A DNA stretch of 64,000 nucleotides from the NCBI GenBank assembly GCA_017503725.1, contig JAFVSL010000005.1:15455-79454 (forward strand), read 5' to 3'. Made by a program: the position numbers and the translations under genes. The stretch's first letter is position 1. The number at the start of each line of letters is the position of its first letter. The DNA comes from Alphaproteobacteria bacterium. GTDB taxonomy: Bacteria; Pseudomonadota; Alphaproteobacteria; Rs-D84. Of the stretch, positions 10,935 through 58,771 are shown in pieces. A model generated the notes under the pieces. That model had not been told where the DNA came from. It searched no databases and saw only the letters and a program-made list of their open reading frames with translations.

Positions 10935-11924
10935 TTATAACAAAGTGCGGAATTCCCGCCAATTTTTAACCTGGGGCAATACGGACAAATACAAAACACC
11001 GATTGCGGCCACCGCCGGCATCGTTGTAATCGTCCCAAACAGTATTACCGTCATCGCCAGCATACGTTCCATTAACCCACGTGGTTGCGCCTTTGCGTGC
11101 CATACCGACAACATAAACAGCACCAATACTGCACCACACATACCAACAAACAACGGCACAGATTCCGTCAGCATAAACAGCGCCATCATCAAAACAGACA
11201 CAACCCGCATCATCCATTTTAATTTCACATAGGCACTTTGACGAATCTTGCCACGCGAATTAACATTGTTAAGCGCAATCACCGCCATTGCGCACACACC
11301 AATCATCAGCACAAAAATCAAATGCACCGGTGTTAAATTACCCAACTGACCAAAGCGGAAAAATTCTGGTTGCATCAGCATTGCCACCGTCACCATCAAG
11401 ATAATTAAAATCATTCCCGCAACCGGTCGCATTGCACCACGTGCCACGCGCCCCATCAGCCAGCCCAACGAACACGCACCAACCTGTAATATTGGCCCCC
11501 ACCAGGCGTGCACGTCAGACATCACCAACGCCAAAAGAATCAAGACCGCAATGGCGAATCGCGCCCGTGCATTTATCTTGAATGCTGGCAAATGACGCAT
11601 ATGCGACGCAACAAACAAAGACGTCAGGAAAACAATAACCGCCACCACAAATGGCAACACCGACACTTCATCGCGCAAAACGGCATAGTTTCCACCAAAA
11701 AGCACAACCCACACAAACGTCAGCAACGCCACCACAACACCACCACGCGCATTGATATTATCCGCCCCCAGTGAAAATTTATCACAAATCATCGGTGCGC
11801 ATTTCCACACCAAAAACATCAAAGGCAACGACAGAACCGCCCACCACAAAAACGCAGGCGCGACCAATGCCGCATTATTAAACGCACTAATTGCACTTTG
11901 CACAATAACAACATCATTAAACAT
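10935..11924 (-). CDS. Polytopic integral membrane protein, about 10 TM segments, function unknown
   Basis: 329-aa ORF that is highly hydrophobic throughout. No diagnostic motif recognised. Confidence 0.55.
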   Translation of the reverse strand: MFNDVVIVQSAISAFNNAALVAPAFLWWAVLSLPLMFLVWKCAPMICDKFSLGADNINARGGVVVALLTFVWVVLFGGNYAVLRDEVSVLPFVVAVIVFLTSLFVASHMRHLPAFKINARARFAIAVLILLALVMSDVHAWWGPILQVGACSLGWLMGRVARGAMRPVAGMILIILMVTVAMLMQPEFFRFGQLGNLTPVHLIFVLMIGVCAMAVIALNNVNSRGKIRQSAYVKLKWMMRVVSVLMMALFMLTESVPLFVGMCGAVLVLFMLSVWHAKAQPRGLMERMLAMTVILFGTITTMPAVAAIGVLYLSVLPQVKNWREFRTLL

Positions 11925-43076: not shown

Positions 43077-43550
43077 TTAATTCAAAAACAAGATTGACGC
43101 ATTTAAATATGTCGCGAACAGCATCCAAATCACATACGGCCATACCAGATATGATGCCAGTTTGCTGATTGGCTTGAACGCAGACGCCATCCATATTGCA
43201 ACTATAATCAACGCAATCAGAACAACCAACGCCGCACCAACCATATGCAGACCAAAATACAAATACGTCCACGCAAAATTCAACACCATTTGCGCCAAAA
43301 ACAGCCAGTACGCACGCGCCTTGCTAAGTCTGGTCTTTTCGTTGCTGATAATCAGATACAACGCCCAACCCAACAGGGCATATAATATTGTCCACGCCAC
43401 ACTGAACACCCAGCCATCTGGTGTCAGCACAGATTTATTCAATGCATTAAACCAGGCATCCGAACCATTATGCGGTGTAAACATCACCCCGAATATTCCC
43501 GGGATAAAAGATATAACCATCGCGATGATAAATTGAAAAAACTTTTTCAT
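43077..43550 (-). CDS. tspO: TspO/MBR family tryptophan-rich sensory protein
   Basis: Five-TM Trp-rich protein of about 157 aa with typical W/Y pattern (WFNAL.K....P..WVFSVAWTILY). Confidence 0.75.
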   Translation of the reverse strand: MKKFFQFIIAMVISFIPGIFGVMFTPHNGSDAWFNALNKSVLTPDGWVFSVAWTILYALLGWALYLIISNEKTRLSKARAYWLFLAQMVLNFAWTYLYFGLHMVGAALVVLIALIIVAIWMASAFKPISKLASYLVWPYVIWMLFATYLNASILFLN

Positions 43551-43686
43551 CTTTTTTCTCTCCTTTATACTCTGGGGAACATTATATCACGTGTTTCCCC
43601 ACCCCGACACAGGAACGATTTCACACACCCCTTGACAAAACAACCCCGGATTTGCTATCCATTCAAGTATTCAAGGAGTAAAAGTA

Positions 43687-44121
43687 ATGAAAAACGAAGA
43701 TATTTTCTTAAAAATCGTTAACCAAAACCCATCTATTTATCAATATGTAGAATTCAAAACCGGCACCCCATACATCAGCGCATTTGACACAAACGGCCGT
43801 CGTACTGCCAAGCATGTAACCTATGACGATAAACATCGTGCCCTAGAACTGGCCATAAGCACCAAGGCACCAACCCTGTCATACGACAACGGTGTTTATT
43901 GTTGGGCAGACGGTACAAATGTTTATCTATTTGTTGAACCAGACCTGGCGCGCGCCCTGTGGCCAAATCGCGAACCATTACAGAACGGATATGTACCAAT
44001 GGCAAATGGCGAAACATTACTGACATTTCCATCATTGATGCACCTGCGCAATACATCATATCATCATCAGAAACAAAAACTGATGAACGCGGCCCAACGC
44101 AACACACAGCACACAATATAA
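43687..44121 (+). CDS. Hypothetical protein
   Basis: RBS AAGGAG upstream of the ATG. Terminator hairpin at 44124-44150. Confidence 0.5.
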   Translation: MKNEDIFLKIVNQNPSIYQYVEFKTGTPYISAFDTNGRRTAKHVTYDDKHRALELAISTKAPTLSYDNGVYCWADGTNVYLFVEPDLARALWPNREPLQNGYVPMANGETLLTFPSLMHLRNTSYHHQKQKLMNAAQRNTQHTI

Positions 44122-44189
44122 AACCATCGCCCCAAAATGGGGCGGTTTGAATTTCTGGTTTACCATACGAAGCATTTTGCGAAGTATGG

Positions 44190-44300
44190 CGCGCCCGGCA
44201 GGATTGTAAATTCCCATATTCGCTTTCGCTCTATGGGCCCCTTTCGCCTACGGCTCGAACCCACAGGTTCTCATCCAAGTTCGTGCAACAAAAATTAAAC
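44190..44300 (-). pseudogene. Tandem decayed tRNA 3'-end fragments. TGGCGCGCCCGGCAGGATT is the last 19 nt of a tRNA-Arg, broken in the T-loop. A second T-arm-like piece is GGGTTCGAGCCGTAGG.
   Basis: The acceptor 3' strand CGGGCGC-G-CCA is complementary to the 5' half at 57571-57618. Confidence 0.45.
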
Positions 44301-44326
44301 CGTCCATCCGGACGGTTGAATTTCTG

Positions 44327-44375
44327 GCACGCCCTACAGGATTCGAACCTGTGACCTGCAGATTAGAAATCGTCT
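44327..44375 (-). pseudogene. tRNA-Arg(TCT)-like 3' half: anticodon loop to CCA with no 5' half. Candidate att remnant.
   Basis: Reverse complement CGATTTCTAATCTGCAGGTCACAGGTTCGAATCCTGTAGGGCGTGCCA has an intact T-arm, acceptor and CCA. The upstream sequence is not tRNA-like. Confidence 0.55.
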
Positions 44376-44479
44376 GAACCGAAACCGATTGTTTGCCCGA
44401 TTCCCGCCCTTTGCCACCATTTTACCCTTATACTAAACTCCATACTATGTAGCAAATATGTAACATTTTTACAAAAACG

Positions 44480-45532
44480 CTACACAATTTCCCAATGACC
44501 GCCACGATCTGGACCGATACGGCGAATTTTCCCGGACTTTTTCAATTTATCCAGATTCCACTTTACACCATCCGGGCTAAGCCCTGTTGCGCTGGCCAAT
44601 TCGGCACGTGTTGCACTTGGATTCTTCGCCAATATATCCAAAATTTTCTGGGCAGTTTTCTGGGTAGTTTTCTGGGTAGTTTTCTGGGTAGTTTTTGCCA
44701 CATTTTCCTTTATCTGCATTTCACGATTATCAAGGCGATTTTTCTCGCCCAATAACAAATTACCAAAGAATTTGTTCAAGTATTCCATCGTGTACGGAAT
44801 ATTCTTTTCCAGATTTTGATAATTCGCACGAACCAGTGCATTTCTGAAATATTTCGCATGCTTTTCAAACATTTCATTGTTTGTATGCAAACCCAACGTA
44901 TCTAAATACTTTATAATAAATACAACTGTCGCGCGAGTATTCCCCTCGCCAAACGGGTGTATTTGCCATATCCCAGACATAAATTTTTCAATATGTTCTA
45001 TGCGTTGGCGTTTGGTTAAACTGCTATAATCAAACTGTTTCTCTTGTGCAAAATCGTATTCCAGCGTTTCAGCAATACTGTCTGCCCGACCATAGACAAC
45101 AGTATCATTGTTCAATATTTCTTCTTTCTTGGTTATATTATATGTGCGGAACTGACCAGCTATTTTTTTATCCAGAACACCATCAAATAAAGCCCCATGA
45201 ATCGATTTATATTCGGCCGGGCTGAATGTAAATGTCTTTTCGCTTAATAATTTCGCAATACGTGCAGATACCTTATCAGCTTCTTGCTCGTCTTGCTCTT
45301 TCTGGGTAGTTGCAGCATTTTCATGATAATAGCGATTTATTTCACGTTCTGCATCATAGACCGATATTTTCCCCTCTATATTATCTTTTGCAATATCAAT
45401 CAGATATTTAGATGGCGTTAAATTATCAACCATCTGCAGACCAATGGCAACACCCCAGTTTTCTGCACGAGTGCGTTTATCCGGTTCGCCTTGCTTTTTA
45501 TATTCACTAAAATACTGCTTTTGTCTTGCCAT
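44480..45532 (-). CDS. Fic/DOC family protein with C-terminal winged-HTH. Contains an in-frame TTQK x4 tandem repeat.
   Basis: Fic motif HPFGEGNTRAT. C-terminal wHTH (ILDILAKNPSATRAELASATGLSPDGVKWNLDKLKKSGKIRRI). Confidence 0.8.
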   Translation of the reverse strand: MARQKQYFSEYKKQGEPDKRTRAENWGVAIGLQMVDNLTPSKYLIDIAKDNIEGKISVYDAEREINRYYHENAATTQKEQDEQEADKVSARIAKLLSEKTFTFSPAEYKSIHGALFDGVLDKKIAGQFRTYNITKKEEILNNDTVVYGRADSIAETLEYDFAQEKQFDYSSLTKRQRIEHIEKFMSGIWQIHPFGEGNTRATVVFIIKYLDTLGLHTNNEMFEKHAKYFRNALVRANYQNLEKNIPYTMEYLNKFFGNLLLGEKNRLDNREMQIKENVAKTTQKTTQKTTQKTAQKILDILAKNPSATRAELASATGLSPDGVKWNLDKLKKSGKIRRIGPDRGGHWEIV

Positions 45533-45623
45533 CTCTGAATTTCATAGTAATCAAACTTCCCCACCTTTTCAACCAAGAAATAAAAACGCGGTCATTCGAC
45601 CACGTTTTTTCGTTCGGTTATAT

Positions 45624-48236
45624 TTATTCCTGTTTGTATCGTTTTTCTCTGTTTAAGAAAGCCTCAAAACCGCCCTCTAGAGCATATAATTTGGCACGTT
45701 GTTCCATATTTTCTATGGTAAAACTTGTTATGTTAGAATCTTTATCAAGATGAATCACTTGATCAGAGTCACCATTTATAACTATATTTGCATTGTGTGT
45801 AGCAAAAATAATTTGCCGTTTAGATTTGATGATTTTTAATATTTTTACTAACTCATTATATATTACAGGTTCTCCTAGGTTGCTTTCTGGTTCATCTATA
45901 ATGATTGGTGTATTTCCAAGTGATAATAATATAATAATAGTTGCGGTTGCTCTTTGTCCAAATGAGCAATCCAATATGTTTTTGTTGTTGTACAGTATAT
46001 TTATTTGTTTGTACTTAACAATATTGTTATATATTTCATCATACTTTGTTTGGAATTCATCCCAATAAATTGTTAAATAATTTGATAAATATTCGACAAT
46101 TTTTAAATCTTGTTTTTCTAACTTCTTGATATAATCTTCTGGTTTATTTATGTTTTTTGGGCATATAAAAGAATTGTTCGAAATTAGTCTCCTTTCCAAT
46201 TCAGATATAAAACTACGTTCTGTTATTTTTAATTCTTGCAATCTATGATCTAGCCAATTGATAAAATCTTTATTCGCTGTTCTATAATCAAAAGTTAATT
46301 CAAAGTTTATCAAGGAACTTTCTTTTCCGCCTATGTTAACCATCTTTTGTGATAAAGAAGTAAATTCTTCTTGTAATGTATTCTGATATGCCTTGATATC
46401 ATTATCAATGTCATTTACAACATTTTTCATAGATACTATATCCGAACGAAGTCCAGAAATTTTAATCATGCATTGTTTAATTTGCTCTTCAAGATTCACT
46501 TTGTTTTGTTCCAAAACAAGTTTGTCTGTTAAATTCTCATCGTTTTCAAAACCACGAAGTTTCAAATATTCTTTCAGTTGGTCTTGTATTTGAACGATGT
46601 CTGAATTGATAGTTTGAAGGCGTTTTTCGGTTGTTTCGAATTGTTTTGGAACAAATGTTTCACCGGCAAATACGGTATGTTCTTCTAATAAGGTTCTTAA
46701 AGATTCAAAAATTGCGTTATATGCTATTCCATATTCGCTTGACGGCTCTGCAGGAATATAATTACCTGTTTTGTGTTCATCGGAATGGTGAACAATGCGA
46801 AGTAATTCTAAAATAACTTTTGTGTATTTATCTTTTTCAATTTGTATATTATTACCTTGTAATATATTTGCTCTTAACCGTTTATTAAAATCAATATAAG
46901 TTTCATCACTAATCCCTGAAATGATTTTTTCAATGTGTTGCTGTTTAATGGTTAAATTGTTCTTTTCTGTTTCGGCATCTAATAATTGCTTGTTTTTGTT
47001 TATAATAGAAATGTAACAGGCAAGTTTATTTTGAATACGTTGTTCTATGTCAGAAAGCGTTGGAGATTGTATTCGATGTCTAACAATATTGGTTATTTCA
47101 TAATTTCTTGCTATACTCTCTATCTCGTTTTGTGTGTAGTATTCTACCTGATCTGTGTTTTTTGTTTCTGCTAAAAATTCTGTCGGTTTATATTGTTTGT
47201 TTAATATTTTGTTAATTATATGATCTCCTTTCTCTCTGATCTTTTTATTGATGGATGAAAGCCCCATTTTATAAGCCAGCAAATCTAGAAAGACCGATTT
47301 TCCTGTTCCTCTATCTCCAATTATACAAATCAGTCCTTTGTTAAGAAATACTTCTTGGTTGATTCCAGAAAAGCAAAATTTGTCCTCTTTCCCGTCCACA
47401 AGTGGTATATATACTTCATCAGGTACAGATAACCGAACATTTTCAATATTGTATAAAGATTCTTCAGGAACCGCCCCAGAAGGTTTTACCTGTATTCTAG
47501 ATTCGCATGAGCAAAGCGCCTGTCTTAGACCTTCTAGTGTTAAATCTGATTTGATCCACAAATCTGCTTTAGGGCTATATGCTCTTGCATCGTGATTGTC
47601 GGAACACAGAATCATAGGGTATACACCTATATTTGGAAATACTTTTTCTTTGTATTCTGCCATATCTCTTTCTTGTCCCATTTCAAAAATATCAATTTTG
47701 TTAACAATATCTGTTTTGATAGCTTGAGATACCTGTAACGAATTTGTTATAACATCATCGATACCATTGCTTTTTCTTCCCGCGTGTATAGATACTAGAC
47801 CATTAAATTCTCGGATTATTTCAATGGCCGCATCTATGTTTACATAGATTTCGTCCTCTGTTCTGCCATTCTGCTTCTGATGATATATACCGCCTTTGTG
47901 TTCAAACGAATTATTGATAGCATCAATGTCAACATGTTCATCAAATATCCCGATTATGTGAATATTCTCTCCAGCACCGCATTCTGTTCGAATTTCAATT
48001 CCTGGAAATACAACCAATTTATCTGCAGCTAATCTTTGTAAATTTTCTATTCTATTTTTATCAATATTGTTATGATCTGTTATTACGACCGCAGAAATAT
48101 TTTTTGAAGTTAAACTATTTATGATGTCTTCGTCGGTTATTGCATTATTTTTATAATCTGAAGAAGATGGTGTATGAAAATGCAAATCCCATTTGTGCCA
48201 TTGGGAACCACAAAAAGATTTTCTTAAATTACCCAT
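45624..48236 (-). CDS. 870-aa protein: N-terminal PHP-type phosphoesterase domain plus ABC/SMC-like ATPase with a long coiled-coil insert between Walker A and Walker B. Defence-type single-protein architecture.
   Basis: PHP motifs (WDLHFHTPSSSDY, VITDHNN, HAGR). Walker A GDRGTGKS. Walker B IIIDEPES. H-loop FATHNANIV. A coiled-coil of about 400 aa in between. The gene is AT-rich. Confidence 0.75.
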   Translation of the reverse strand: MGNLRKSFCGSQWHKWDLHFHTPSSSDYKNNAITDEDIINSLTSKNISAVVITDHNNIDKNRIENLQRLAADKLVVFPGIEIRTECGAGENIHIIGIFDEHVDIDAINNSFEHKGGIYHQKQNGRTEDEIYVNIDAAIEIIREFNGLVSIHAGRKSNGIDDVITNSLQVSQAIKTDIVNKIDIFEMGQERDMAEYKEKVFPNIGVYPMILCSDNHDARAYSPKADLWIKSDLTLEGLRQALCSCESRIQVKPSGAVPEESLYNIENVRLSVPDEVYIPLVDGKEDKFCFSGINQEVFLNKGLICIIGDRGTGKSVFLDLLAYKMGLSSINKKIREKGDHIINKILNKQYKPTEFLAETKNTDQVEYYTQNEIESIARNYEITNIVRHRIQSPTLSDIEQRIQNKLACYISIINKNKQLLDAETEKNNLTIKQQHIEKIISGISDETYIDFNKRLRANILQGNNIQIEKDKYTKVILELLRIVHHSDEHKTGNYIPAEPSSEYGIAYNAIFESLRTLLEEHTVFAGETFVPKQFETTEKRLQTINSDIVQIQDQLKEYLKLRGFENDENLTDKLVLEQNKVNLEEQIKQCMIKISGLRSDIVSMKNVVNDIDNDIKAYQNTLQEEFTSLSQKMVNIGGKESSLINFELTFDYRTANKDFINWLDHRLQELKITERSFISELERRLISNNSFICPKNINKPEDYIKKLEKQDLKIVEYLSNYLTIYWDEFQTKYDEIYNNIVKYKQINILYNNKNILDCSFGQRATATIIILLSLGNTPIIIDEPESNLGEPVIYNELVKILKIIKSKRQIIFATHNANIVINGDSDQVIHLDKDSNITSFTIENMEQRAKLYALEGGFEAFLNREKRYKQE

Positions 48237-48388
48237 ATTATTTGTGCCCTTATGTTAATATTATTATATATCCAATATACCGATACAAGTATAGCTTGGT
48301 TTAATTTTATTTTCAACCTTGCAAATACCTGTTACTTTTGCCAAAATATAAATACACAGTATATCCATATGAAGTCAGCAACCCCATC

Positions 48389-48760
48389 ATGATCACGATA
48401 TTATTATCCATTAAGCCGCAATTTGTAAAAAAGATACTTTCTGGTGAAAAGTGTTTTGAATTCAGAAAGCATATTCCAAATAAAGCGATTGATAAAATTT
48501 TGATATACAGTTCCTATCCGGTGTGTGCTGTTGTAGGAGAGGTAGAAGTTCTAAGTATAATATCTACATCGCCAAAAAAGCTGTGGGAAGAAACTAAAAA
48601 TCAATCGGGAATTGATTCTGAGTTCTTTTTCAAATATTTTGCCGGCAAGGATACAGCATACGCATATAAGCTAGGCAAAATAACAAAATATCCAATTGCA
48701 AAACAGTTAAGTGACTTCGGGGTAAAATATGCCCCTCAGTCATTTGTTTACATAAAGTAA
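48389..48760 (+). CDS. ASCH (PUA-like) domain protein
   Basis: MITILLSIKPQFVKKILSGEKCFEFRK resembles the N-terminal beta-barrel of ASCH domains. ATG at 48389. The six-frame ORF begins at a TTG at 48338. Confidence 0.5.
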   Translation: MITILLSIKPQFVKKILSGEKCFEFRKHIPNKAIDKILIYSSYPVCAVVGEVEVLSIISTSPKKLWEETKNQSGIDSEFFFKYFAGKDTAYAYKLGKITKYPIAKQLSDFGVKYAPQSFVYIK

Positions 48761-48761
48761 A

Positions 48762-49727
48762 TTACCATTCTACATCGATGTAAAACATATCGGCTGGTTG
48801 ACCAAGCAACTGTATATCGAATTTCAAACTTGGTTCTACAATCGTGCTGGCACTGTGTATTCTGAAAGATATCGCCCAACCATTGTCCATTGTTAACACG
48901 ATGGTCGTTTTAGAACCGGGTTTGTATGCTAATTCAATAATTCTTGTAGGTAGTTTGATTTTTGGGATGCTAATCTGCGGTTTAGACACTTTAGATGACT
49001 GGTTTAGGGTGCCGCATACATTAAATGGCATTACTGTGGTTTTATGATCGTTATGGTGGATTAGTTTATAATAATCTTTGCCATTTGACCCCAGTAGATA
49101 TGCGATTATTCCAGATGTAACTTTATCATTATGCAGTTTGAATAGGCTATTAAACTCATCAATAAATGCATCTAAAACTGGCACATAAACGCCATCTTGC
49201 TTATCTGGTAAATCTGACCACGCCACACCGTTATGTTTCAACTCTATAAGCCGGTTAAAAATTGGAGTTATAGCAGAAAAATATTTGTCCGAGCACGGTA
49301 AACCAAACCATTCGTTCCCAAAATCAATATGTTGGGACAATCTGGAGTGTTTAAGAGCAGCATGATTATGTTTCACGGATATCCCTATCTCCCATTTAAT
49401 ATCTCTGCGAATTATGATGACATCACGAATATCACCAGTTCTTGCAATATTATCTGGTTGTAAAAATATTGTCAACGCATCTCTTCCGTCTTCAATGATC
49501 TTTGGTTCCATTTGAATAATGACATCTATACCGGCTGCAGCTGATTTTAGCATATCTTGCTGAACTGTTTCTGTTACACATTCAAAACATTGTTTAGCTA
49601 CCGCAAAGCTGGAGTTTTCTTCAATCGTCACAGGACGGATCTTGGAAACCTTATCATGTATTGTTTGCAAACATGCGTATTCGTATGCCTTGCCCATAAT
49701 CATTGATTGTTCGGTGGATCTGTTCAT
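48762..49727 (-). CDS. Probable Type II restriction endonuclease partnered with the adjacent C5-methyltransferase
   Basis: 321-aa ORF overlapping the MTase stop by 4 nt on the same strand. No sequence motif is conclusive. Assignment is by context and size. Confidence 0.45.
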
Positions 49728-50713
49728 TCGGTTAAATCCTCCATAATCTGTTTTGCAATTTCAAAAGCTAGATTGACAGGAACTGCATTGCCAATCATTT
49801 TGTATCCCACAGCAACATCGGTATATACAAAAATGAAGTCATCCGGGAAGGTTTGGATTCTTGCGCACTCGCGCACGGAAAGTCTGCGATAAGCAGATTC
49901 TTGTCCTTTTACAAATTCGAACTTGTCAGTACTTGCCTTTTGCATAGCTGGTGCGCTGGGGTGTAATGGTGCTTGGCGACCTCCAGCCTGAATAGTGAAA
50001 GAAGGTTCATTCCATCCCCTTACACGATTTCGTGACATAAATATAGAAGACCAGCCACCGATCATGTATTCATGATTAGGAATTTGCAATTCTCCATTGG
50101 TCTTGTTCTTTTCTTTTGCTGGAATTGCGGTCGGCAAATCGCCGATCGCATCTTTCAGGGTTGGCTTATATTCTTTTGGTGCAGGAAACACAAATTTCTT
50201 TTTAAGATCTTTGCGATATCCAATTATGATAACCCTTTTGCGGGTTTCTGGAACGTTATAATCATTAGCATCCACCAATTGCCAGAATATATCATATCCA
50301 CAATCTTCAAATTCTTTTAGAAATCCCTGAAACGCATCAGCGTGTTTTGGATGTAATATGCCAGCCACATTTTCTACCAAGAAGAACTTGGGTTGTTTTA
50401 CTTTCAAAATCCGAATATAGTCATAAAACAGTTGGCCTCGTTTATCTTCTATTCCTCGTCTCGCTCCAGCTTCCGACCAACTTTGACATGGAGGTCCACC
50501 TATAATGCCGATAGAATCTGGGATTTCGCTAGCATCAACATCGGTAATGCTACGTCTGTCCAGCTTAGTGTGTGGAAAATTACGTTCAAAAGTCGCCCAT
50601 ATAGTTTTATCAAACTCATTTGCCCATATAGTATGAAAACCTGCTTTTTCAAAACCTAAATCTAAACCACCAGCACCGCTAAAAAACGACACAACACTAA
50701 AATCTTTCGACAT
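49724..50713 (-). CDS. DNA (cytosine-5)-methyltransferase, from memory closely resembling the GGCC-specific M.HaeIII
   Basis: Motif [12 protein letters not shown], motif [11 protein letters not shown], motif VI ENVAGIL, the C-terminal ...[16 protein letters not shown], and the variable region ...KNKTNGE...[33 protein letters not shown]. Confidence 0.9.
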
Positions 50714-50844
50714 TTTCCTTCCCTTTGGGTTTCTCTCAAAGGGCGGAATAATTAAACCACGAAATTGTTGTTACACAAAAACAATTGCTGAAATCGGTTG
50801 ATTTTCGCGGTTTTTTTATTTACAATTTTGGAACAATTAAAGGG

Positions 50845-51441
50845 TCATTTTCTGCTTTCAAGAAATCGCGAAATTGTGGGCGGGCTGACCCGGATAGTTC
50901 TGGCAATTTTTCGTTTAGAAACTCCTGCTGAATACATATCTAAAATCAAGTTTTCATGACCGTCAATGATATGGTAAGTATTCTTTTGGCCATTTGGACG
51001 GCCCAGTTTTACACCGCGTAATTGCAATGCTGCCAATGCCTCTTTGGTGCGCTGGGCGATAAGATTACGTTCAATCTCAGCTGATAGCCCAAATGCAAAC
51101 GCTAAAACCTTAGATTGAATAGTGTCACCCAACTCATAGCCATCTTTGACGGTATAAAGACGCGCCCCTATTTTCATGCAATGTTCCAATATTCGCATAA
51201 TCATGAACATTTTTCGCCCAAGACGCGAAAGTTCACTACATATTATAACGTCGCCCGGATTTAAATGTTGCAAAACACCGCCTAATGCGCGTTGCTCTGG
51301 CTCTTTGGTGCCGGAAATGCCCGCATCTTCAATGTATTTATCAATACAAAGCCCTAATGCGCTGGCTTTGGATTCAATGCCCAATTTTTGGTTTTCACAG
51401 TCTTGTTTATCGGTCGAAACCCGAATATACCCATATATCAC
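50845..51441 (-). CDS. Serine recombinase (resolvase/invertase family)
   Basis: N-terminal catalytic MIYGYIRVSTDKQ (Ser nucleophile). C-terminal HTH. 198 aa. Confidence 0.85.
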   Translation of the reverse strand: MIYGYIRVSTDKQDCENQKLGIESKASALGLCIDKYIEDAGISGTKEPEQRALGGVLQHLNPGDVIICSELSRLGRKMFMIMRILEHCMKIGARLYTVKDGYELGDTIQSKVLAFAFGLSAEIERNLIAQRTKEALAALQLRGVKLGRPNGQKNTYHIIDGHENLILDMYSAGVSKRKIARTIRVSPPTISRFLESRK

Positions 51442-51597
51442 AATAAACTCCTTTGGTTTGTTGTTCTATATGCCGTAGATTTCATTTTATTCAAGTAAAA
51501 ATAATGTTGATATTACCCTTGCTTTTACTAAATGTCGTATTATTAAACTGGATGTTTGCGCTGGTTGTGCTTTGTTTGTTCTAAAAAAGGAGTAAGC

Positions 51598-52767
51598 ATG
51601 ACATTAAAAGAATCAATCAACAACCTAGAAATACGGATAATCAAGGATAAACAGCAACTTATTCGCCTAGAGCGGGAATTAAATAAAAATCAACAACTAA
51701 CAATAAAAATCTTGCAACAAATTTGTCAGCAAATGCAAATGACACAAAAAACACAGTATACCAAGCGGTTATCAATTGGTGAGGTGCTGGAACGTTACAG
51801 AATAAAAAACGGAATAGACAGCGAGGAGACCAAGCGTAAATGCAAAACTATAGCATATTATTCAAATAAAGTAGGCTTAGAATTGAAATGCGAGTATACA
51901 AAATTTCATAGGGATGTAATTTTGTTGAAAATATTTAATGAAATATCAGATAGAAAAGATATAAAGGGGGATCAGAAAGCAAAGCATGCTAGATGGATTG
52001 TTAGTTTTGTAAAATTTGCAGTATTTGCATATCCTGACCTGTATAAAACAGATGTGCTGGTTGGACTTCCATCTATGAAAAAAACACCCAAAAGCGCCAA
52101 ATGCCCCCATACTCCATATACAGATGAACAATTGAAGTCTATTTTTGACCCGAATAAGAAATTCTTTTATTATAATCCAGAGATTTTTTGGGGGTGTATG
52201 ATAGCATTATTTACTGGTGCAAGAAAAAATGCAGCATTTACATTACAATACAAAGATATAATTCTAAAAGATGGTATTTGGTGTATAAATTTCATAGAAG
52301 ACAGTCCAGGAATTAAACAATTAAAAACAGAAGAGTCTGAGCGAATAGTACCAATTCATTCGGCGCTTTTGAAAATGGGTTTCTTAGAATACATCAATAA
52401 AAAACATAAAAACAATGATCAAGATTTTATCTTTAAAAAGACATGCTTGACCTCCAAAGGCAATCTAAATCCTCACATTACGAGGAACTTTTTTATATAC
52501 CTAAAAGATATCGGTGTAAAAAATCCAGAATATGGAAGGTTTGATTTTCATTCATTCCGTAAAAATGCAAACATTATGATGGAAAAATGCGGGATACTCC
52601 GACCCTATATAGATAAGATTATCGGTTGGATGAGTCGTGGTAGCGAGGGCGAAAGATCATATTCAAATTACTCCATAAAACAAGTGTCGGAACAATTAGA
52701 ATTATTACGCTACGATTGTCTCAAAACGGAATTTAAGAGATGGCAAAAGATAATGTCTAAGATATAA
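51598..52767 (+). CDS. Tyrosine integrase/recombinase (phage integrase family)
   Basis: C-terminal catalytic region with R...H.FRKNA...GW...Y pattern. RBS AAGGAG upstream of ATG 51598. Confidence 0.7.
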   Translation: MTLKESINNLEIRIIKDKQQLIRLERELNKNQQLTIKILQQICQQMQMTQKTQYTKRLSIGEVLERYRIKNGIDSEETKRKCKTIAYYSNKVGLELKCEYTKFHRDVILLKIFNEISDRKDIKGDQKAKHARWIVSFVKFAVFAYPDLYKTDVLVGLPSMKKTPKSAKCPHTPYTDEQLKSIFDPNKKFFYYNPEIFWGCMIALFTGARKNAAFTLQYKDIILKDGIWCINFIEDSPGIKQLKTEESERIVPIHSALLKMGFLEYINKKHKNNDQDFIFKKTCLTSKGNLNPHITRNFFIYLKDIGVKNPEYGRFDFHSFRKNANIMMEKCGILRPYIDKIIGWMSRGSEGERSYSNYSIKQVSEQLELLRYDCLKTEFKRWQKIMSKI

Positions 52768-52839
52768 AAAATTCGATTATTTCACTAGATATTCCATTTT
52801 TTGTTGGCATTGTTGTGTTGAAAAAACAAGAGGCACAAC

Positions 52840-53373
52840 ATGACAACGATAAACAAGCAACACGGGTTCTATGGTGCACTGGCGACACGCTATGACAGTC
52901 CGGTCCACCGACAGGAAATCTGGGACTTAGCGATTAAACGCCTGGGGCAAATTCACTCCGAAAAGTCCGCCGCAGAAATCGTAGACTTTCTGAACAGTCG
53001 TACCGGGCGACACCTGGCCGATGAAATATTTGATGACCCCGGCACCCTAAGCTATGGGGTGGCGATGCTACGCATAGCAATGCTGAACAGGCTTAAAATG
53101 GCGAAATGGTGGGCGCATTACAGTGGCACCACGCTGCACACAGCGCCGGTGGACAAGCGTATGCTGTACCGATCGGCAATCAAGAACGAGATGCGCAATC
53201 GGCAAATACGAAAACTGATAGAAGATGCGCTGGCGTGCACCCATTACGAAGTTTGGCAGACCCCAGAAATGTGGTTGAAATCAGACCTGACAGGTTTGGA
53301 CGAGCTGGAAATGATGTGGACACAGATTCAGCAAGAACTAAAAACCAAAGGCGCCACACATGGAAACGATTGA
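52840..53373 (+). CDS. Hypothetical island protein
   Basis: ORF with ATG. No motifs recognised. Confidence 0.4.
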   Translation: MTTINKQHGFYGALATRYDSPVHRQEIWDLAIKRLGQIHSEKSAAEIVDFLNSRTGRHLADEIFDDPGTLSYGVAMLRIAMLNRLKMAKWWAHYSGTTLHTAPVDKRMLYRSAIKNEMRNRQIRKLIEDALACTHYEVWQTPEMWLKSDLTGLDELEMMWTQIQQELKTKGATHGND

Positions 53374-53629
53374 TGCACTGGAACGGAAACTGCACGCCGC
53401 CCAACAACAGGCATGCAACGCTAAATACCCAACGGGGCTGATAGTTGATCTGAACGGGCCAGCCGGCAATATCTTCTATCTTATGGGCATGTGTAATCGG
53501 CTGGTACGGGAACTGCAATTAAGGCCCGCTGAACGCCAAGAATTTGAAACCGAACTATATGCCACCAGGGACTATCAATCCCGACTGGCTGTCATGGCAA
53601 AATGGTTCGGAATCGTGTTTGTAAAGTAA
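53360..53629 (+). CDS. Hypothetical island protein, 89 aa, start overlapping the upstream stop
   Basis: ORF only. Confidence 0.35.
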   Translation: METIDALERKLHAAQQQACNAKYPTGLIVDLNGPAGNIFYLMGMCNRLVRELQLRPAERQEFETELYATRDYQSRLAVMAKWFGIVFVK

Positions 53630-53702
53630 AACCTGGATTGTTTTTTAAGTCCACAAAAAAAGATCTTCTTACTTTATTGCTTTTTCTTGATTTTTATGGA
53701 TT

Positions 53703-54173
53703 ATGGGGTATGATTTCTGTATGAAAAATAATAATCGACGTGTTATTCTTAACCGTTTTTTTGAAGAATTGGACGATGAGACAAAGTGGACACGGGCACG
53801 CGTTGAGGCACAAATTTATTCTGCGGTCATCCTTGCTATTCAGATGGATAAAAACGACAAAACACGGCAACACATGTTGGCAACATGGCCGGCGGAATGT
53901 TCTGTTCGATATGAATGGTTTGAATCTGTTATTGCAGACGTTAAATTGCCCCCAAATATAGCCCCCTTTGATAACACACACGATAATTTTTATAATGTTT
54001 TGGTGCATTGGTTAGATTCTGTGGACAGTGTCACAGATAGAAAATTATTGATTCTGCATTCAATCGGTTTATCAATGAATAAAATCGGCAAAAAGACTGG
54101 GCTGTTACGTCAGACCGCCAGTCGTCGTTACACCAACGCAATCGATGCGCTGGTTTGGAAATTAAACCACTAA
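53703..54173 (+). CDS. Hypothetical protein with C-terminal HTH resembling sigma-70 region 4 or a LuxR-type helix
   Basis: LILHSIGLSMNKIGKKTGLLRQTASRRYTNAIDALVWKL. Confidence 0.4.
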   Translation: MGYDFCMKNNNRRVILNRFFEELDDETKWTRARVEAQIYSAVILAIQMDKNDKTRQHMLATWPAECSVRYEWFESVIADVKLPPNIAPFDNTHDNFYNVLVHWLDSVDSVTDRKLLILHSIGLSMNKIGKKTGLLRQTASRRYTNAIDALVWKLNH

Positions 54174-54334
54174 ACAAACTAACCTGTATACTTATATCGT
54201 ACCTTTTTATACCGTAAAGTAACCTAAACTAACTTAATTTCCTTTTTGTCGCAAAAACGTGCATTGCGCACGGTTATTTTTTATGCATATATCTTTACAT
54301 AGACTCATCAAAACCCGAAACAAAAGGACAAACC

Positions 54335-54544
54335 ATGACAACAATATTATCCAAGGACGAATATATGACGGAACGCGCGCTGGCTGAAATGTGGGGATTG
54401 AAACGCAATACTTTACAAAAATGGCGCAGTACCGGTGTTGGACCAAAATTTCTAAAACGTGTTGGTCGCATTGTATATCGGAAACAAGATATAGCTGAAT
54501 TTGAACAAAACAACATATTTCAGCGTACAAGCGACAAGCAATAG
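54335..54544 (+). CDS. AlpA-like excisionase / MerR-type HTH DNA-binding protein
   Basis: 69 aa. LAEMWGLKRNTLQKWRSTGVGPKF is typical of AlpA/Xis-family prophage regulators. Lies among the integrases. Confidence 0.55.
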   Translation: MTTILSKDEYMTERALAEMWGLKRNTLQKWRSTGVGPKFLKRVGRIVYRKQDIAEFEQNNIFQRTSDKQ

Positions 54545-54547
54545 GAA

Positions 54548-55135
54548 ATGGTTATGAAACGGCTGGCCAATCCAAAATGGGCACTTTTATTGGAAAATAT
54601 ATCACGCGAAGAACGCGGCGACATATTTATGGCGATTTTGAAATACCCCGACTTGGAATGTTCAAGCGCTGTGTGGCCATTTATAAAAGCCGAACTAGAT
54701 GAAGACGATATTAAATATAAAGCCAAATGTGAACGACTGGCCACGAACAGATTGGCGCGTTGGGGCGAACAGAATTCATCAGATATCAAACAGAACTTAT
54801 CAGATATCAGACAGAAATCAGATGCAATAGCAAATAGCAAGTACAGTACAAACACAATAAAACAAAACAAGGAAATGCATACTCATACGAATGATTTGCT
54901 TCAAAAATTAGCAACTTCTTTTAACCCATCACGAGAGCCAACATATCACATAGACAACGAATTTTCGTTAGCCAAAATCATTAAGAGAACCCCAAACTTG
55001 TTCCCAATATTCGATGAATTTACACCGGAACAAATTGCAAATGGGGAAACCTCATTGAAACGCAAATGCATGGGACAAGATAAAACGATGGCACAAATCA
55101 TAGGATGGATAAGAAATGAAGGAAATTTCACATAA
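54548..55135 (+). CDS. Hypothetical island protein
   Basis: ORF only. Confidence 0.4.
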   Translation: MVMKRLANPKWALLLENISREERGDIFMAILKYPDLECSSAVWPFIKAELDEDDIKYKAKCERLATNRLARWGEQNSSDIKQNLSDIRQKSDAIANSKYSTNTIKQNKEMHTHTNDLLQKLATSFNPSREPTYHIDNEFSLAKIIKRTPNLFPIFDEFTPEQIANGETSLKRKCMGQDKTMAQIIGWIRNEGNFT

Positions 55136-55248
55136 AAACATAATAGGTTCTGTGACGAGTTTTCACATTGAGGGTAACGGCGACCGCGACACTTGCCTAG
55201 CGACAGAAATAAAAAAACGGTGAACGGCGAACACTAAAAGGGGTAACG

Positions 55249-55728
55249 ATGTTATTATCTAGAAGAGAATATGCCGCACATCGCGGTGTTGCGGTATCCG
55301 CAGTCCAAAAAGCCATTGAAACAGGACGAATAACACTAATAGACGGGAAAATAGACCCCGAAAAGGCGGATAAAGAATGGGCAGAGAACACTAACCCAGC
55401 CTATAACACCCCGCGCACAAATGACAGTTCTTCAAATTCTTATCAAAGAAGCAAAGCAATGAAGTCGACATACGATGCAATGCTGAAAAAACTGGAATAC
55501 GAAGAACGTGTAGGAAAGCTAATACCATTAGCACAAGCACAATCTGAGGCTTTTGCGGCAGCCCGATTTTCAAGGGATCAATTACTGATGATTCCGCGAC
55601 GTGTTGCACCGCGACTTATCGGACAAACAAACATTTCCGACATTGAGTATATCTTGACCCAAGAAATTACAGAGGCGTTAAGAAATTTATGCAACATATT
55701 ACAAGGAAACAAAGGAGAACAAAAATGA
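55249..55728 (+). CDS. Hypothetical protein with N-terminal HTH-like segment
   Basis: RBS AAAAGGGG. REYAAHRGVAVSAVQKAIETGRI is HTH-like. Confidence 0.4.
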   Translation: MLLSRREYAAHRGVAVSAVQKAIETGRITLIDGKIDPEKADKEWAENTNPAYNTPRTNDSSSNSYQRSKAMKSTYDAMLKKLEYEERVGKLIPLAQAQSEAFAAARFSRDQLLMIPRRVAPRLIGQTNISDIEYILTQEITEALRNLCNILQGNKGEQK

Positions 55729-55955
55729 CACAAAACACAAAAACTGAAATCAAAACTGCATGGGATAAAACAGTTGCATTTTTAATAGAAAAATCAGACA
55801 CAGTATCTGAAAACATCGCATTGGAAATAATAGGAAAACCCAAAGATGAAATACATGCAATTTTAAGTCGCGCAATGACAGAATTCTGGGACATGGGCGA
55901 GCAATATTTCATACAAGAAATCCGCAAAAGCCAGCAAAAAATACAAGAGTCTTGA
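55725..55955 (+). CDS. Hypothetical small protein, 76 aa
   Basis: ATGA overlap with the upstream gene. RBS AAAGGAGAAC. Confidence 0.4.
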   Translation: MTQNTKTEIKTAWDKTVAFLIEKSDTVSENIALEIIGKPKDEIHAILSRAMTEFWDMGEQYFIQEIRKSQQKIQES

Positions 55956-56018
55956 TAGTCTTATTCACTGGACTTGTGCGCTTTTATTATCAATGTTGTG
56001 TGTAACAAAGGACAACAT

Positions 56019-57230
56019 ATGCGGGCACTTAAATGTCAAAAGTTGGTTTTAACAACAGGATTTCTGAACAAACTGAAATCCGACATTGATTTGCAAATAA
56101 CAGATGCAGCACTGCCAGGGCTACAATGCCGGTATTCGGCCGCATCTGGACGCAAAGTGTTCTATTTGGGATATCGCGTTCGCGGTTCATATCAACAAAA
56201 GCATATGAGATTGGGCACATTGGCGGAATTTAGCTTAAATGAGATTCGCGCACGTGCGATACAAACCAAACAAGATATCGCCAACGGTCTGGACCCGCAA
56301 TCAGAACAACGCATACGCATAAAGCAAAACGAAATGGCCGCAGCACGACGTAAACAAGTCCGTGAACTAACCCCAATATTTATGGAAAAACATTGTCGCG
56401 AAAATAATCGGGAAAACACCTATCGCTCAAACGAAACATTGATGCGCCTATATATAATCCCATATCTTGGCGATAAATACATTGCAGATATTGATCTGCG
56501 CACAATCCAGGATATGTACGATAAAATCAAAAACACAAAAACCGTTGCTGTTGGATTGCATGTTATGCGGTTATTATCGACCTTTCTAAATTGGTGTGAA
56601 AAATACAATTATCGCACAATAAATTCGAATCCGTGCCATTTGGTTCAAAAGGCAAAATCCCCAAAGATGAACCATACGATTCTAGATATTGATGGTTATA
56701 AACGTTTATTTACTGCACTGGACGAGGCATTTTGCGCTGGGAAATATGCACCACAAACCATCCTGGCTATTAAAACACTTGCGCTGACGGGCTGTCGCAG
56801 CAGCGAAATAACAAGCCTGGAACGGGACGAATTAGACCTAGAAAACGGGTATCTACGTTTAAATAAACGCAAAACAGATGCATTTAATGTACCGCTGGGC
56901 GATCCAGCAATCGAAGTTATAAAACAGGCATTGAGAATTTGTAAAAGCAAACAGTATGTTTTTCATTCCCCAATTGACCATACACGCCCATTAACCGATT
57001 TACGTAAAGCGTTCTGGTGGGCATTGGATCGTGCTGGATTACCGCGTATGCGAATACACGACCTGCGCCACTCTTTTGCAACACTGGCCACCAGCATGGG
57101 CGAAGATATACGAATATTAAAAGACGTATTGGGACACACAAAAATCACCACAACTGAAATATACGCACACGCATCAAGTATTGCGGCACGCCGCACTGCA
57201 AACAATGTTGCAAGCATGATAACAGGATAA
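56019..57230 (+). CDS. Phage-type tyrosine integrase (P4-like), convergent on tRNA-Arg
   Basis: Catalytic residues in ...GCRSSEITSLERDELDL... HDLRHSFATLA ... TTEIYAH (R, H-x-x-R, Y). RBS AAAGGA upstream of ATG 56019. Confidence 0.85.
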   Translation: MRALKCQKLVLTTGFLNKLKSDIDLQITDAALPGLQCRYSAASGRKVFYLGYRVRGSYQQKHMRLGTLAEFSLNEIRARAIQTKQDIANGLDPQSEQRIRIKQNEMAAARRKQVRELTPIFMEKHCRENNRENTYRSNETLMRLYIIPYLGDKYIADIDLRTIQDMYDKIKNTKTVAVGLHVMRLLSTFLNWCEKYNYRTINSNPCHLVQKAKSPKMNHTILDIDGYKRLFTALDEAFCAGKYAPQTILAIKTLALTGCRSSEITSLERDELDLENGYLRLNKRKTDAFNVPLGDPAIEVIKQALRICKSKQYVFHSPIDHTRPLTDLRKAFWWALDRAGLPRMRIHDLRHSFATLATSMGEDIRILKDVLGHTKITTTEIYAHASSIAARRTANNVASMITG

Positions 57231-57296
57231 ATTGGTGAATACTGGGTCAACAAATAAAAAGAAAATCGGGGTAAACCCGATTTAATTTTTGGCGTG

Positions 57297-57373
57297 CCCA
57301 GCAGGATTCGAACCTGCAACCTATTGCTTAGAAGGCAATTGCTCTATCCGGTTGAGCCATGGGCACAAAACCA
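57297..57373 (-). tRNA. tRNA-Arg (anticodon TCT), CCA encoded. Its 3' end faces the integrase.
   Basis: Reverse complement GTGCCCATGGCTCAACCGGATAGAGCAATTGCCTTCTAAGCAATAGGTTGCAGGTTCGAATCCTGCTGGGCACGCCA folds as a perfect cloverleaf. Confidence 0.85.
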
Positions 57374-57570
57374 ACTGTATGGAATTCGGCACACCATGCG
57401 ACCAATTCCTGTGTAACATTCTATGTAACAAATATGTAACATTATACATACAATTACATACAATTCAATCAATCTGTGTCAAGTTTTATACAGAACTGAT
57501 TTTCACGCACACCCGCATAAATCCAACCTTTATACATCTTTATCCAAATCTATCCATAAAAATTGCGGAC

Positions 57571-57618
57571 GATTAGAAATCCGATGCTCTATCCAGCTGA
57601 GCTACGGGCGCACGACGC
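57571..57618 (-). pseudogene. tRNA-Arg 5' half (acceptor, D-arm, anticodon stem 5' strand and loop TTTCTAA), broken after the anticodon loop
   Basis: Reverse complement GCGCCCGTAGCTCAGCTGGATAGAGCATCGGATTTCTAATCG, then non-tRNA sequence. Its acceptor matches the fragment at 44195-44213. Confidence 0.55.
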
Positions 57619-57685
57619 ACATTTTATATCAAAATTATTAAGATTTCAAGCACACACAAATAAAAAATGCCCCAACGGGGCATTT

Positions 57686-58318
57686 TTAATCATCAACAGC
57701 TTTCTTTAACTGGCGCAGTTCTATAAACATATAGACGTCTGCCGCCGCATAAAACAGCATTGTTATCGCCAACCAATACACAACTGCGACCGCACCCGCC
57801 ATCGGCCAGAACAGCAACGCAATCGCCAGCGTACATAACGCCAACGCCACAATCAAATCAAAAACCCAATGCCCAAATCGCGCGCGCGCCATATTTATTG
57901 CAAAAATCAATGCACGCAGTGCTTTGAAAAGGAACAAGACCAAAAACACATACAGTAACGCAATCATTGACCCCGCCGGATATACCAGGAACAACACCCC
58001 TAACACAACATTCGCCAATCCAAAAATAACATCAACCCAGCCACCACCATATGGGCGCGCCACAACAAAGCCAGCAATTGCACGATAAAGCCCAAACAAT
58101 ATCAATCCACACCCCAGCACAAACATCAAAGTCGTCAAAACCGCCAACGGTTTAAAAGCCATAAACAGCGCAATTACCCCCAGTAATAAAGCCTCGCCCA
58201 ACAGCAAGGGCGCACTTTTATTATATAATCTTTCAACCGATGCGGCAATCGCATCACGTGCATTGCCACGCGTCATTTTTTTCGTATTTTTTGATGCTGT
58301 ATTTTTACTTTTTACCAT
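57686..58318 (-). CDS. HdeD-family (DUF308) membrane protein
   Basis: Six-TM pattern with repeated G..L..G motifs. Lys-rich N-terminus. Confidence 0.6.
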   Translation of the reverse strand: MVKSKNTASKNTKKMTRGNARDAIAASVERLYNKSAPLLLGEALLLGVIALFMAFKPLAVLTTLMFVLGCGLILFGLYRAIAGFVVARPYGGGWVDVIFGLANVVLGVLFLVYPAGSMIALLYVFLVLFLFKALRALIFAINMARARFGHWVFDLIVALALCTLAIALLFWPMAGAVAVVYWLAITMLFYAAADVYMFIELRQLKKAVDD

Positions 58319-58411
58319 AAAATCCCCCTATTGTTTATATATGGGGGATTATAAAACAAACATCCTAAACATCCAAGGGATTAGTATTCCCAGGCACAAA
58401 AACCGCACCCC

Positions 58412-58771
58412 TTAGGCAAAGAACACAAACAACCACACACACACAACCGCAGTAATGGTTAATAATACAATCGCACTGCCAATATCTTTGGCGCGACCGG
58501 ACAATTCGTGATATTCGGGCCCTATTCTGTCAACGATATTTTCAATGGCACTATTAACCAATTCTGCAACCAGCACACACACCATTGACACCGCCAACAC
58601 AACACGCTCTGTCATTGTTATATTGGCAAACGTCAACACAATCACACCAATTACACACATAAACAATTCTTGGCGAAATGCGGCCTCGTTCTGGGCAACC
58701 GCACGCAACCCATTCCACGAATTTTTAAATGCGGCCATAATTCGATTTAGACCCTTTTTTTTATTCGTCAT
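58412..58771 (-). CDS. dgkA: Diacylglycerol kinase
   Basis: Three-TM protein of about 120 aa with the conserved ...ELVNSAIENIVDRIG... motif. Start at an internal ATG. The six-frame ORF extends to 58810. Confidence 0.75.
   Translation of the reverse strand: MTNKKKGLNRIMAAFKNSWNGLRAVAQNEAAFRQELFMCVIGVIVLTFANITMTERVVLAVSMVCVLVAELVNSAIENIVDRIGPEYHELSGRAKDIGSAIVLLTITAVVCVWLFVFFA

Follow-up and report, generated by a model that had tools for sequence, protein, structure and literature searches.

A 13-kb defence island of Candidatus Enterousia that appears to split a tRNA-Arg(UCU) gene and to carry a complete tRNA-Arg(UCU) of its own

We analysed a 64-kb window of the metagenomic contig JAFVSL010000005.1, in which a mobile island lies within a tRNA-Arg gene. 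All coordinates refer to this window, forward strand, and L-numbers are labels of the compared loci, contigs and unitigs. The source samples are SAMN15830033, SRR12529306, SRR12529278 and SRR12529312. The host belongs to Candidatus Enterousia, order Rs-D84, as judged from the ArgS gene 3 kb to the right of the interval; Enterousia are gut Alphaproteobacteria with reduced genomes of ~0.75–1.0 Mb. We consider it very probable that positions 44372–57570, together with one copy of an 11-bp core, form one integrative element that has split a tRNA-Arg(UCU) gene and carries a tRNA-Arg(UCU) of its own. The island is probably a phage satellite or a mobilisable island with anti-phage cargo. That an island is integrated here at a tRNA-Arg hotspot had been proposed in a first-pass annotation of the sequence, and this was borne out by empty sites in relatives and by loci in which the island's arm is joined to other tRNA alleles (L015, L105).

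The 11-bp core GATTAGAAATC occurs exactly twice in the 64-kb window, at 44361–44371 and 57571–57581, where 0.04 copies are expected by chance; the direct repeat reported by the first-pass annotation at these positions is thus exact. As read from the sequence, the repeat comes from a split tRNA-Arg(TCT) gene, of which it comprises the anticodon loop and the two stem pairs flanking it to either side. The minus strand of 57617–57571 (GCGCCCGTAGCTCAGCTGGATAGAGCATCGGATTTCTAATC) is the 5′ half of a tRNA-Arg(UCU) and ends 2 bases past the anticodon loop, and the minus strand of 44371–44325 (GATTTCTAATCTGCAGGTCACAGGTTCGAATCCTGTAGGGCGTGCCA) is a 3′ half that begins 2 bases ahead of this loop. Both halves remained unscored in an Rfam scan of the whole region 43500–58500, in which internal truncations are not modelled. 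When the excerpts were run alone, Infernal scored both, the 5′ half (57571–57611) with 26.5 bits over model positions 1–39 as a 3′-truncated match and the 3′ half (44328–44371) with 29.9 bits over model positions 29–71 as a 5′-truncated match. The two halves are complementary and overlap at model positions 29–39. Neither ARAGORN nor Rfam found a rebuilt tRNA at either junction. On the element side the 5′ half is followed by GTCCGCAATTTTTATGG..., which is non-tRNA sequence and includes no 3′ half. The native tRNA promoter (TTGAAA-17-TAAAAT, 57649–57621) still precedes the truncated 5′ half, and the promoter and terminator scan showed a hybrid stem-loop at the junction, followed by a T-run.

A tRNA-Arg(TCT) gene is found at the syntenic place in many relatives, with three main alleles: A in L012, L013 and L017, B in L009, L018, L020, L025, L027–L032 and L040, and C in L033. 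All three are represented in the window. The truncated native 5′ half at the right, attL-like junction (57571–57617, minus strand, core at 57571–57581) is A-type, its sequence being that of the 5′ half in the intact tRNAs of L012, L013 and L017. The displaced 3′ half at the left, attR-like junction (44325–44371, minus strand, core at 44361–44371) is identical to the B-allele 3′ half in L009, L018, L020 and others. The intact gene inside the island is of the C allele.

This complete tRNA-Arg(TCT) (57290–57366, minus strand; ARAGORN; Rfam 73.1 bits) is located ~200 bp inside the right end of the island, between a P4-type integrase and the right arm, and is the only intact tRNA-Arg(TCT) that ARAGORN detected in the window. 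It has its own terminator (57263–57283), and the promoter scan placed a promoter-like TTGAAT-16-TATAAT (57468–57441) ~75 nt upstream of it. The first-pass annotation had described an intact tRNA-Arg(TCT) beside the integrase; the gene is indeed intact, but it is a separate allele carried within the island, and the target itself is not rebuilt. The element tRNA would be expressed and needed by the host, and the element would still be mobile. Since the anticodon arm of the element tRNA, GCCTTCTAAGC, departs from the core in 3 of 11 positions, neither this tRNA nor C-type hosts such as L033 would be expected to serve as integration targets. In L033 the C allele is chromosomal, with its own promoter and no island. 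Probably the element captured its tRNA from a C-type host, or islands replaced the chromosomal allele there.

An empty syntenic site in relatives, which the first-pass annotation had named as a check, was found in L012 and L009. In L012, an intact A-type tRNA is followed directly by the left flank of the window from 44205 leftwards, and no island is present. L009 is the closest relative (ArgS 97% identical) and its site is likewise empty; its flanks are 93–97% identical to those of the window (96.9% for the left flank). Neither the C-type tRNA nor the 204-bp right arm is present in these two empty sites. We also looked up exact protein matches (two flank proteins, the integrase, the Fic protein and a 177-aa open reading frame (ORF)). 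These returned only the same strain context from several samples, with no empty site and no second host.

The right arm, C-type tRNA and integrase were found joined after ...GATTTCTAATC in three hosts, namely the window, L015 and L105, and the 5′ half at this junction is A-type in the window, B-type in L015 and a quite different one in L105. In L015 (contig JAZQTD010000030.1), another Enterousia species, the B-type 5′ half is cut after GATTTCTAATC. Behind it come the 204-bp stretch at 92% identity, the C-type tRNA, a single additional ORF and an integrase that shares 97.5% identity with that of the window. L105 (contig JAEIGA010104372.1) was found by scanning metagenome contigs with a 30-mer from the 204-bp stretch. 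Here, the arm and the C-type tRNA (93% identical) adjoin the 5′ half GTGCACCCGTAGCACAATGGATAATGCAACAGATTTCTAATC, the break falls at the same nucleotide, and the upstream genes (TolC-like, HlyD-like, aldolase) are unrelated to those of the window. The C-type tRNA travels with the arm and the integrase in both loci, and the right arm is 92–93% identical in them while standing beside different host sequences. The left end has a counterpart in L017, where a 90%-identical remnant of it (44372–44470) meets the core, and with it a 3′ half, at the same nucleotide. In L016 the 5′ half is broken at the same loop by a different sequence. No match to the right-arm 30-mer was found in the IMG/VR viral contigs.

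The left arm of the attachment site (44372–44479) and the right arm (57367–57570), which also includes the promoter-like site, share a 27-nt repeat, CATWCTATGTARCAAATATGTAACATT (family D7), located at 44441–44467 and 57417–57443 with 93% identity. These repeats are candidate arm-type sites of one attP, the attachment site of the element. When the arms are joined, the result is GACGA-TTTCTAA-TCGTC, in which 5 perfectly matched base pairs enclose a loop of 7 nt, in imitation of an anticodon arm. The predicted attP is ...AAAAATTGCGGAC-GATTAGAAATC-GTCTGAACCGAAACC..., and the predicted restored hybrid attB, the target site in the host, would read ...GAGCATCGGATTTCTAATCTGCAGGTCACAGG... in the tRNA sense. 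The presumed catalyst of integration is the P4-type tyrosine integrase (56019–57230, plus strand), in which Pfam recognises Arm-DNA-bind_3 (PF13356), Phage_int_SAM_3 (PF14659) and Phage_integrase (PF00589). It is full length, with the catalytic R, HxxR, H and Y kept in the alignment, and its homologues, 1202 in number, include clusters of 198 and 258 members at 92–93% identity.

We propose that this integrase would recombine attP with the host tRNA-Arg(UCU) gene within the anticodon loop of the latter. The two sites would share only GATTTCTAATC, that is, the 7-nt loop and two stem pairs on each side. Because attP is without a tRNA 3′ half, the host gene would be left split, and after integration the promoter-proximal 5′ half would stand at the right end of the island and the displaced 3′ half at its left end. 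The loss would be covered by the element's complete tRNA-Arg(UCU), which is of a different allele and has its own terminator and promoter-like site. A single essential tRNA-Arg(UCU) gene is plausible in this host, since Enterousia genomes are so small. The junction anatomy, the empty sites, the independent junctions and the presence of a cognate tRNA were all observed directly; the steps that would connect them are our proposal.

The integrase directly adjoins the 3′ end of the intact tRNA, which is the usual layout of classical integration at the segment from the T-loop to the 3′ end. If the island had inserted in this way, the C-type tRNA would be the host's own gene, and the 11-bp repeat and the tRNA halves would be older debris. 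A 15-nt T-arm identity (CAGGATTCGAACCTG; family D1) between 44337–44351 and 57303–57317 is in line with this, as are the C-type chromosomal allele of L033 and the Logan unitigs that break within the C-type tRNA. However, such T-arm identity is ordinary tRNA conservation, and the empty sites of L012 and L009 lack both components of the right end. Furthermore, arm, C-type tRNA and integrase recur in three host contexts with the break always after GATTTCTAATC, and the 27-nt repeat places both arms in one attP. A T-loop crossover would also imply, as read from the sequences, a C-type 5′ acceptor combined with a B-type 3′ strand, and these would not fold. We therefore regard classical integration as very unlikely. 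It is unlikely, too, that the locus is a decayed, immobile remnant in which several overlapping integrations and deletions left the halves and the extra tRNA. The layered locus, in which a B-type 3′ half is followed by a mini-module and then by an A-type 3′ end, would fit such a history, as would halves from different alleles, the messy arrays in L096, L101 and L017, and the absence of a circular form among the compared loci. Against it stand both core copies, intact at 11 of 11 positions, and a full-length integrase that keeps its catalytic residues and falls into large clusters of near-identical proteins. Three hosts also have the junction at the same nucleotide, with the arm at 92–93% identity, and independent relatives repeat the split-and-replace layout. 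That the source is a metagenome scaffold, with short-read unitig breaks at 44238, 52836 and 57320/57349, raises the question of a chimeric assembly joined at tRNA-like repeats. We find this highly improbable, as the right junction is spanned by identical unitigs of two other runs and by the scaffold of a second sample, L097, from a second sample, runs across the left junction, and L015 and L105 are independent assemblies with the same right junction of 5′ half, right arm and C-type tRNA.

Several observations weigh against the integrative element that we favour. The predicted attP and hybrid attB were found in none of the compared loci, and neither an excised circle nor a restored attB was seen. 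For the L015 and L105 copies only the right end is available, and all contigs with exact island proteins share one context. Because the 5′ half is A-type and the 3′ half B-type, either the target was a hybrid before the last insertion or the flanks were exchanged later; a hybrid target would have had a G7-A66 mismatch and one G-U pair. The island also contains a resolvase and a second tyrosine recombinase, so that another catalyst is possible. The dependence of the host on the element tRNA is inferred, the count of one intact tRNA-Arg(UCU) gene being that of the 64-kb window. Finally, among the related islands described below, the arrays of L096 and L101 are more complex, include 3′ halves and fall outside one simple scheme.

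Integrase homologues at 53–69% identity sit in similar small islands, which share a common core of DUF6362, HTH_17, DUF6291, a small ORF, HTH_17 and the integrase gene. The DUF6362/HTH_17/DUF6291/integrase module was found with other defence cargo in L092, L094, L096 and L101, and the cargo of the related islands comprises type I and type III restriction, Hachiman-like, AAA_15, KAP NTPase and Fic genes. The split-and-replace layout is repeated in L094/L095 and in L100, whose integrases are 62–63% identical to that of the window. In L094/L095 the integrase gene is followed by an intact tRNA-Arg(TCT), two genes and the 5′ half of another tRNA-Arg, which breaks off directly behind its CTTCTAA loop. 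In L100 a truncated 5′ half is separated by ~220 bp from an intact tRNA-Arg(TCT), beyond which come an OLD-like gene and an integrase that shares 63% identity with ours.

The arrangement resembles tRNA-dependent lysogeny, which was defined in actinobacteriophages such as Fionnbharth, LeBron and Gaia (Guerrero-Bustamante and Hatfull, 2024; PMC10865867). Its marks are a tyrosine integrase, a core of 8–17 bp in a tRNA gene that is not rebuilt, and a requirement for the cognate phage tRNA; the authors suggest that the mechanism may be widespread and cite the Lactobacillus prophage Lj965 (PMC10865867). As in these phages, the island has a tyrosine integrase with an arm-binding domain and putative arm-type sites that flank the core, a short core (11 bp) inside a host tRNA gene left unrebuilt, a host with a presumably minimal tRNA set and a cognate tRNA carried by the element, here the tRNA-Arg(TCT) at 57290–57366. 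It differs in being a 13-kb island without capsid, tail or lysis genes, equipped with a small-terminase-like gene and defence cargo, in its reduced-genome gut alphaproteobacterial host, and in its target, tRNA-Arg(UCU) as opposed to the Lys, Ile2 and Leu tRNAs reported there (PMC10865867). Moreover, the requirement for the phage tRNA was demonstrated in the actinobacteriophages (PMC10865867), whereas for the island it is predicted from sequence. The island would thus belong to the tRNA-dependent kind of integration, in a new host group and as a new type of element. The principle is already published, and was experimentally shown previously only for actinobacteriophages; what would be added is its extension to small, satellite-like defence islands of uncultured gut Alphaproteobacteria with reduced genomes.

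In classical tRNA islands of the Islander class, the island sequence restores the target tRNA at the junction (PMC4383910). Our island shares with them an integrase near one end (56019–57230) and a displaced 3′ fragment at the other (44325–44371), as well as a hotspot with tandem remnants and the splitting of the tRNA in the anticodon loop. Unlike in the Islander class, there is no restoration at the junction, and a separate complete tRNA gene is present instead. An anticodon-loop sublocation for tRNA-targeting integration is said to have been described by Williams in 2002. An alphaproteobacterial case is provided by Sinorhizobium meliloti, in which phage-related sequences substitute a host tRNA gene, a process that the authors link to the diversification of tRNA genes (PMC11476347). 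In both cases the host is an alphaproteobacterium, and the element brings a tRNA gene for the isoacceptor of the host but of another allele; the two cases belong to different host orders and element families and concern different tRNAs.

Satellites of the type of phage-inducible chromosomal islands (PICI) and small defence islands combine an integrase, an AlpA-like helix-turn-helix protein, a small terminase and a variable defence block, and lack virion genes. With 13.2 kb (typical PICI ~10–15 kb), an integrase, an AlpA-like HTH_17 protein, a small-terminase-like gene and no virion genes, the present island corresponds to this pattern, and we would guess it to be a PICI-type phage satellite. 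PICI also have a primase or replication initiator with an origin and are induced by a helper phage. In the island, Pfam, PHROGs and NCBIfam recognised no primase or replication gene, two of its genes encode domains of unknown function (DUF6291 and DUF6362), and no helper phage is known.

It is possible, although we think it somewhat unlikely, that the carried tRNA acts as a device for host range and stabilisation that drives the turnover of an essential tRNA gene. If this were true, 11 bp of anticodon loop would suffice and any tRNA-Arg(UCU) allele could be entered (three alleles were seen as targets), and a host with a reduced genome would come to depend on the island copy except where excision is precise. 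The island allele could then, with time, take the place of the chromosomal one, in which respect we note that the sole chromosomal copy in L033 is C-type and that the distribution of the A, B and C alleles among Enterousia species is out of step with ArgS identity. Independently of this possibility, the integration that we propose would offer mobile elements a concrete way to swap alleles of an essential tRNA between species. Island finders that seek a restored tRNA and a displaced fragment would mis-place such islands, because the carried tRNA would be taken as the target. Our proposal would also single out tRNA-Arg(UCU) as the main defence-gene hotspot of Enterousia.

The sequences indicate that the tRNA-Arg(UCU) locus is a recombination hotspot with mosaic alleles across many gut Alphaproteobacteria. 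Tandem 3′-end remnants and mosaic alleles in many species show that recombination has occurred here repeatedly, in the anticodon loop as well as in the T-loop, as the first-pass annotation had suggested. Examples are found in L015 (15948–16270), L016 (14350–14390), L017 (12377–13116), L100 (11264–11605) and L094 (11282–12790). In L017, the displaced 3′ half combines the anticodon stem of the C type with the T-arm and acceptor of the A type. In L100 the truncated 5′ half adjoins one integrase, and opposite it is a second element, which has a tRNA of its own. The L009 tRNA is B-type, with an A-type trailer right behind it.

To the left of the island, the terminator scan showed the terminator hairpin of the ancestral A-type tRNA trailer at 44128–44144 (minus strand). 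A trailer with this terminator also follows the intact tRNA in L012 and L009. The displaced native A-type tRNA-Arg 3′ end, from the T-loop to the CCA (AATCCTGCCGGGCGCGCCA), lies at 44187–44205 (minus strand) with the A-type trailer behind it and agrees in 19 of 19 positions with the tRNA 3′ end of L012, L013 and L017. Its acceptor strand is perfectly complementary to the 5′ half at 57611–57617, and synteny with L012 and L009 resumes at this 3′ end. The first-pass annotation had placed two decayed 3′ ends at 44190–44300. The one at 44187–44205 is genuine and cut in the T-loop, but the T-loop-like piece near 44250–44275 obtained no tRNA score in Rfam and is the GGTTCGAGCC motif of a conserved module.

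This module of ~100 nt, together with a B-type tRNA trailer and its terminator, occupies 44206–44324 (minus strand) and ends in the T-loop at TAC/AATCC. Modules downstream of the tRNA that are 80–92% identical were found in L020 (12587–12708), L030 (13799–13962), L031 (6558–6747), L032 (3617–3777) and L040, the last with two tandem copies (11491–11614 and about 11700–11839). They are 120–190 nt long, are flanked by ~45-bp repeats consisting of the tRNA 3′ end and terminator, contain the invariant motifs GGATGAGAACC and GCGAAAGGGGCCC and always end at TAC/AATCC in the T-loop. A hairpin in the module shows a few compensatory changes. No Rfam family matched 44206–44324. The module may represent an older att remnant, the arms, now fused, of an element that targeted the T-loop, a miniature integrative element or a small RNA. 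A hammerhead-like ribozyme, considered on account of GGATGAG...CGAAA in 44206–44324, was rejected, as the invariant core letters do not fit and Rfam gave no match. The first-pass annotation had also reported a duplicated motif here. It is exact at 44314–44327, but the copy at ~44146 has an extra T, and both copies are the tRNA trailer and terminator read on the other strand. As the B-type 3′ half, the module and the A-type 3′ end are layered, the site must have recombined at least once before.

The gene content given for the interval in the first-pass annotation was correct according to Pfam, PADLOC and NCBIfam. The cargo begins at the left with a Fic protein with a winged helix-turn-helix (44480–45532, minus strand; Pfam Fic and HTH_24; PADLOC candidate PDC-S72, E 1e-113). 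In the 3′ part of its gene, at 44644–44691, three tandem 12-nt units (TTTTCTGGGTAG) encode a QKTT repeat ahead of the winged-helix domain. Next is an 870-aa protein with PHP and AAA-like ATPase domains (45624–48236, minus strand; Pfam AAA_21 and PHP) that belongs to the TrlF family by NCBIfam (381 bits, cut-off 350) and is Ppl-like by a weaker PADLOC match (E 1e-30). It is followed by an ASCH-domain protein (48389–48760, plus strand; PADLOC candidate PDC-M11B, E 1e-43; weak Pfam ASCH). A type II restriction-modification pair (48762–50713, minus strand; PADLOC REase_II and MTase_II) consists of a HaeIII-family endonuclease (48762–49727; Pfam RE_HaeIII, E 5e-119) and a C5 cytosine methyltransferase (49724–50713; Pfam DNA_methylase, E 2e-95). 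Between these defence genes and the core module are a serine recombinase of the resolvase/invertase type (50845–51441, minus strand; Pfam Resolvase, E 3e-31; PHROG DNA invertase) and the second tyrosine recombinase (51598–52767, plus strand; Pfam Phage_integrase, E 1e-10). By BLASTP, the latter is not significantly similar to the P4-type integrase (24% over 70 residues in the best local alignment, E 0.16). These two genes (50845–52767) may mark a separately mobile cargo cassette.

The conserved core module (52840–55955, plus strand; Pfam and PHROGs) comprises two small phage-related ORFs, DUF6362 (53703–54173), the AlpA-like HTH_17 (54335–54544), DUF6291 (54554–55135), the small-terminase-like gene (55249–55728) and a 76-aa ORF. 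The 159-aa product of 55249–55728 matches phrog_57, terminase small subunit, in PHROGs (E 1e-28), which suggests that the island may be packaged by a helper phage. It had no match in Pfam, NCBIfam or a PDB sequence search, and a search against solved structures was uninformative. Beyond this gene, no virion, lysis, primase or replication genes were recognised in the 13.2-kb interval by Pfam, PADLOC, NCBIfam or PHROGs.

One unitig of another run corresponds exactly to window positions 52836–57349, which suggests that the block to the left of 52836 (second recombinase, resolvase and defence genes) may vary among co-occurring strains. The assembly graph branches at 52836, just right of the second recombinase. 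Logan unitigs (L091, L003, L004, L006–L008) end at 52836, 57320/57349 and 44238. The samples contain variants, with common 30-mers at the unitig ends and divergent sequence beside them, and the ends possibly reflect alternative cargo left of 52836 and another C-like tRNA context. Known differences between the C and C′ tRNAs do not account for the exact unitig breaks, as the positions are off by one.

The interval also stands out in composition. The first-pass annotation had described the 45.6–50.7 kb part as AT-rich, and the G+C content was indeed 0.28–0.39 across 45.5–52.5 kb vs 0.43–0.49 in the flanks. The plot of GC skew that it had recommended showed a non-uniform composition, with the strongly negative skew of the flanks being lost within the interval.

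At 57675–57684, the window is without the 2.5–3 kb that close relatives have between a DUF308 gene and the tRNA promoter (L009 14840–17747, L012 13098–15669, L011 13141–16121). Since the window is without the genes found there in close relatives, this appears to be a second variable spot directly upstream of the tRNA, beside the island. In L009 (14840–17747) it holds four genes, including one that is ADP-ribosylglycohydrolase-like.

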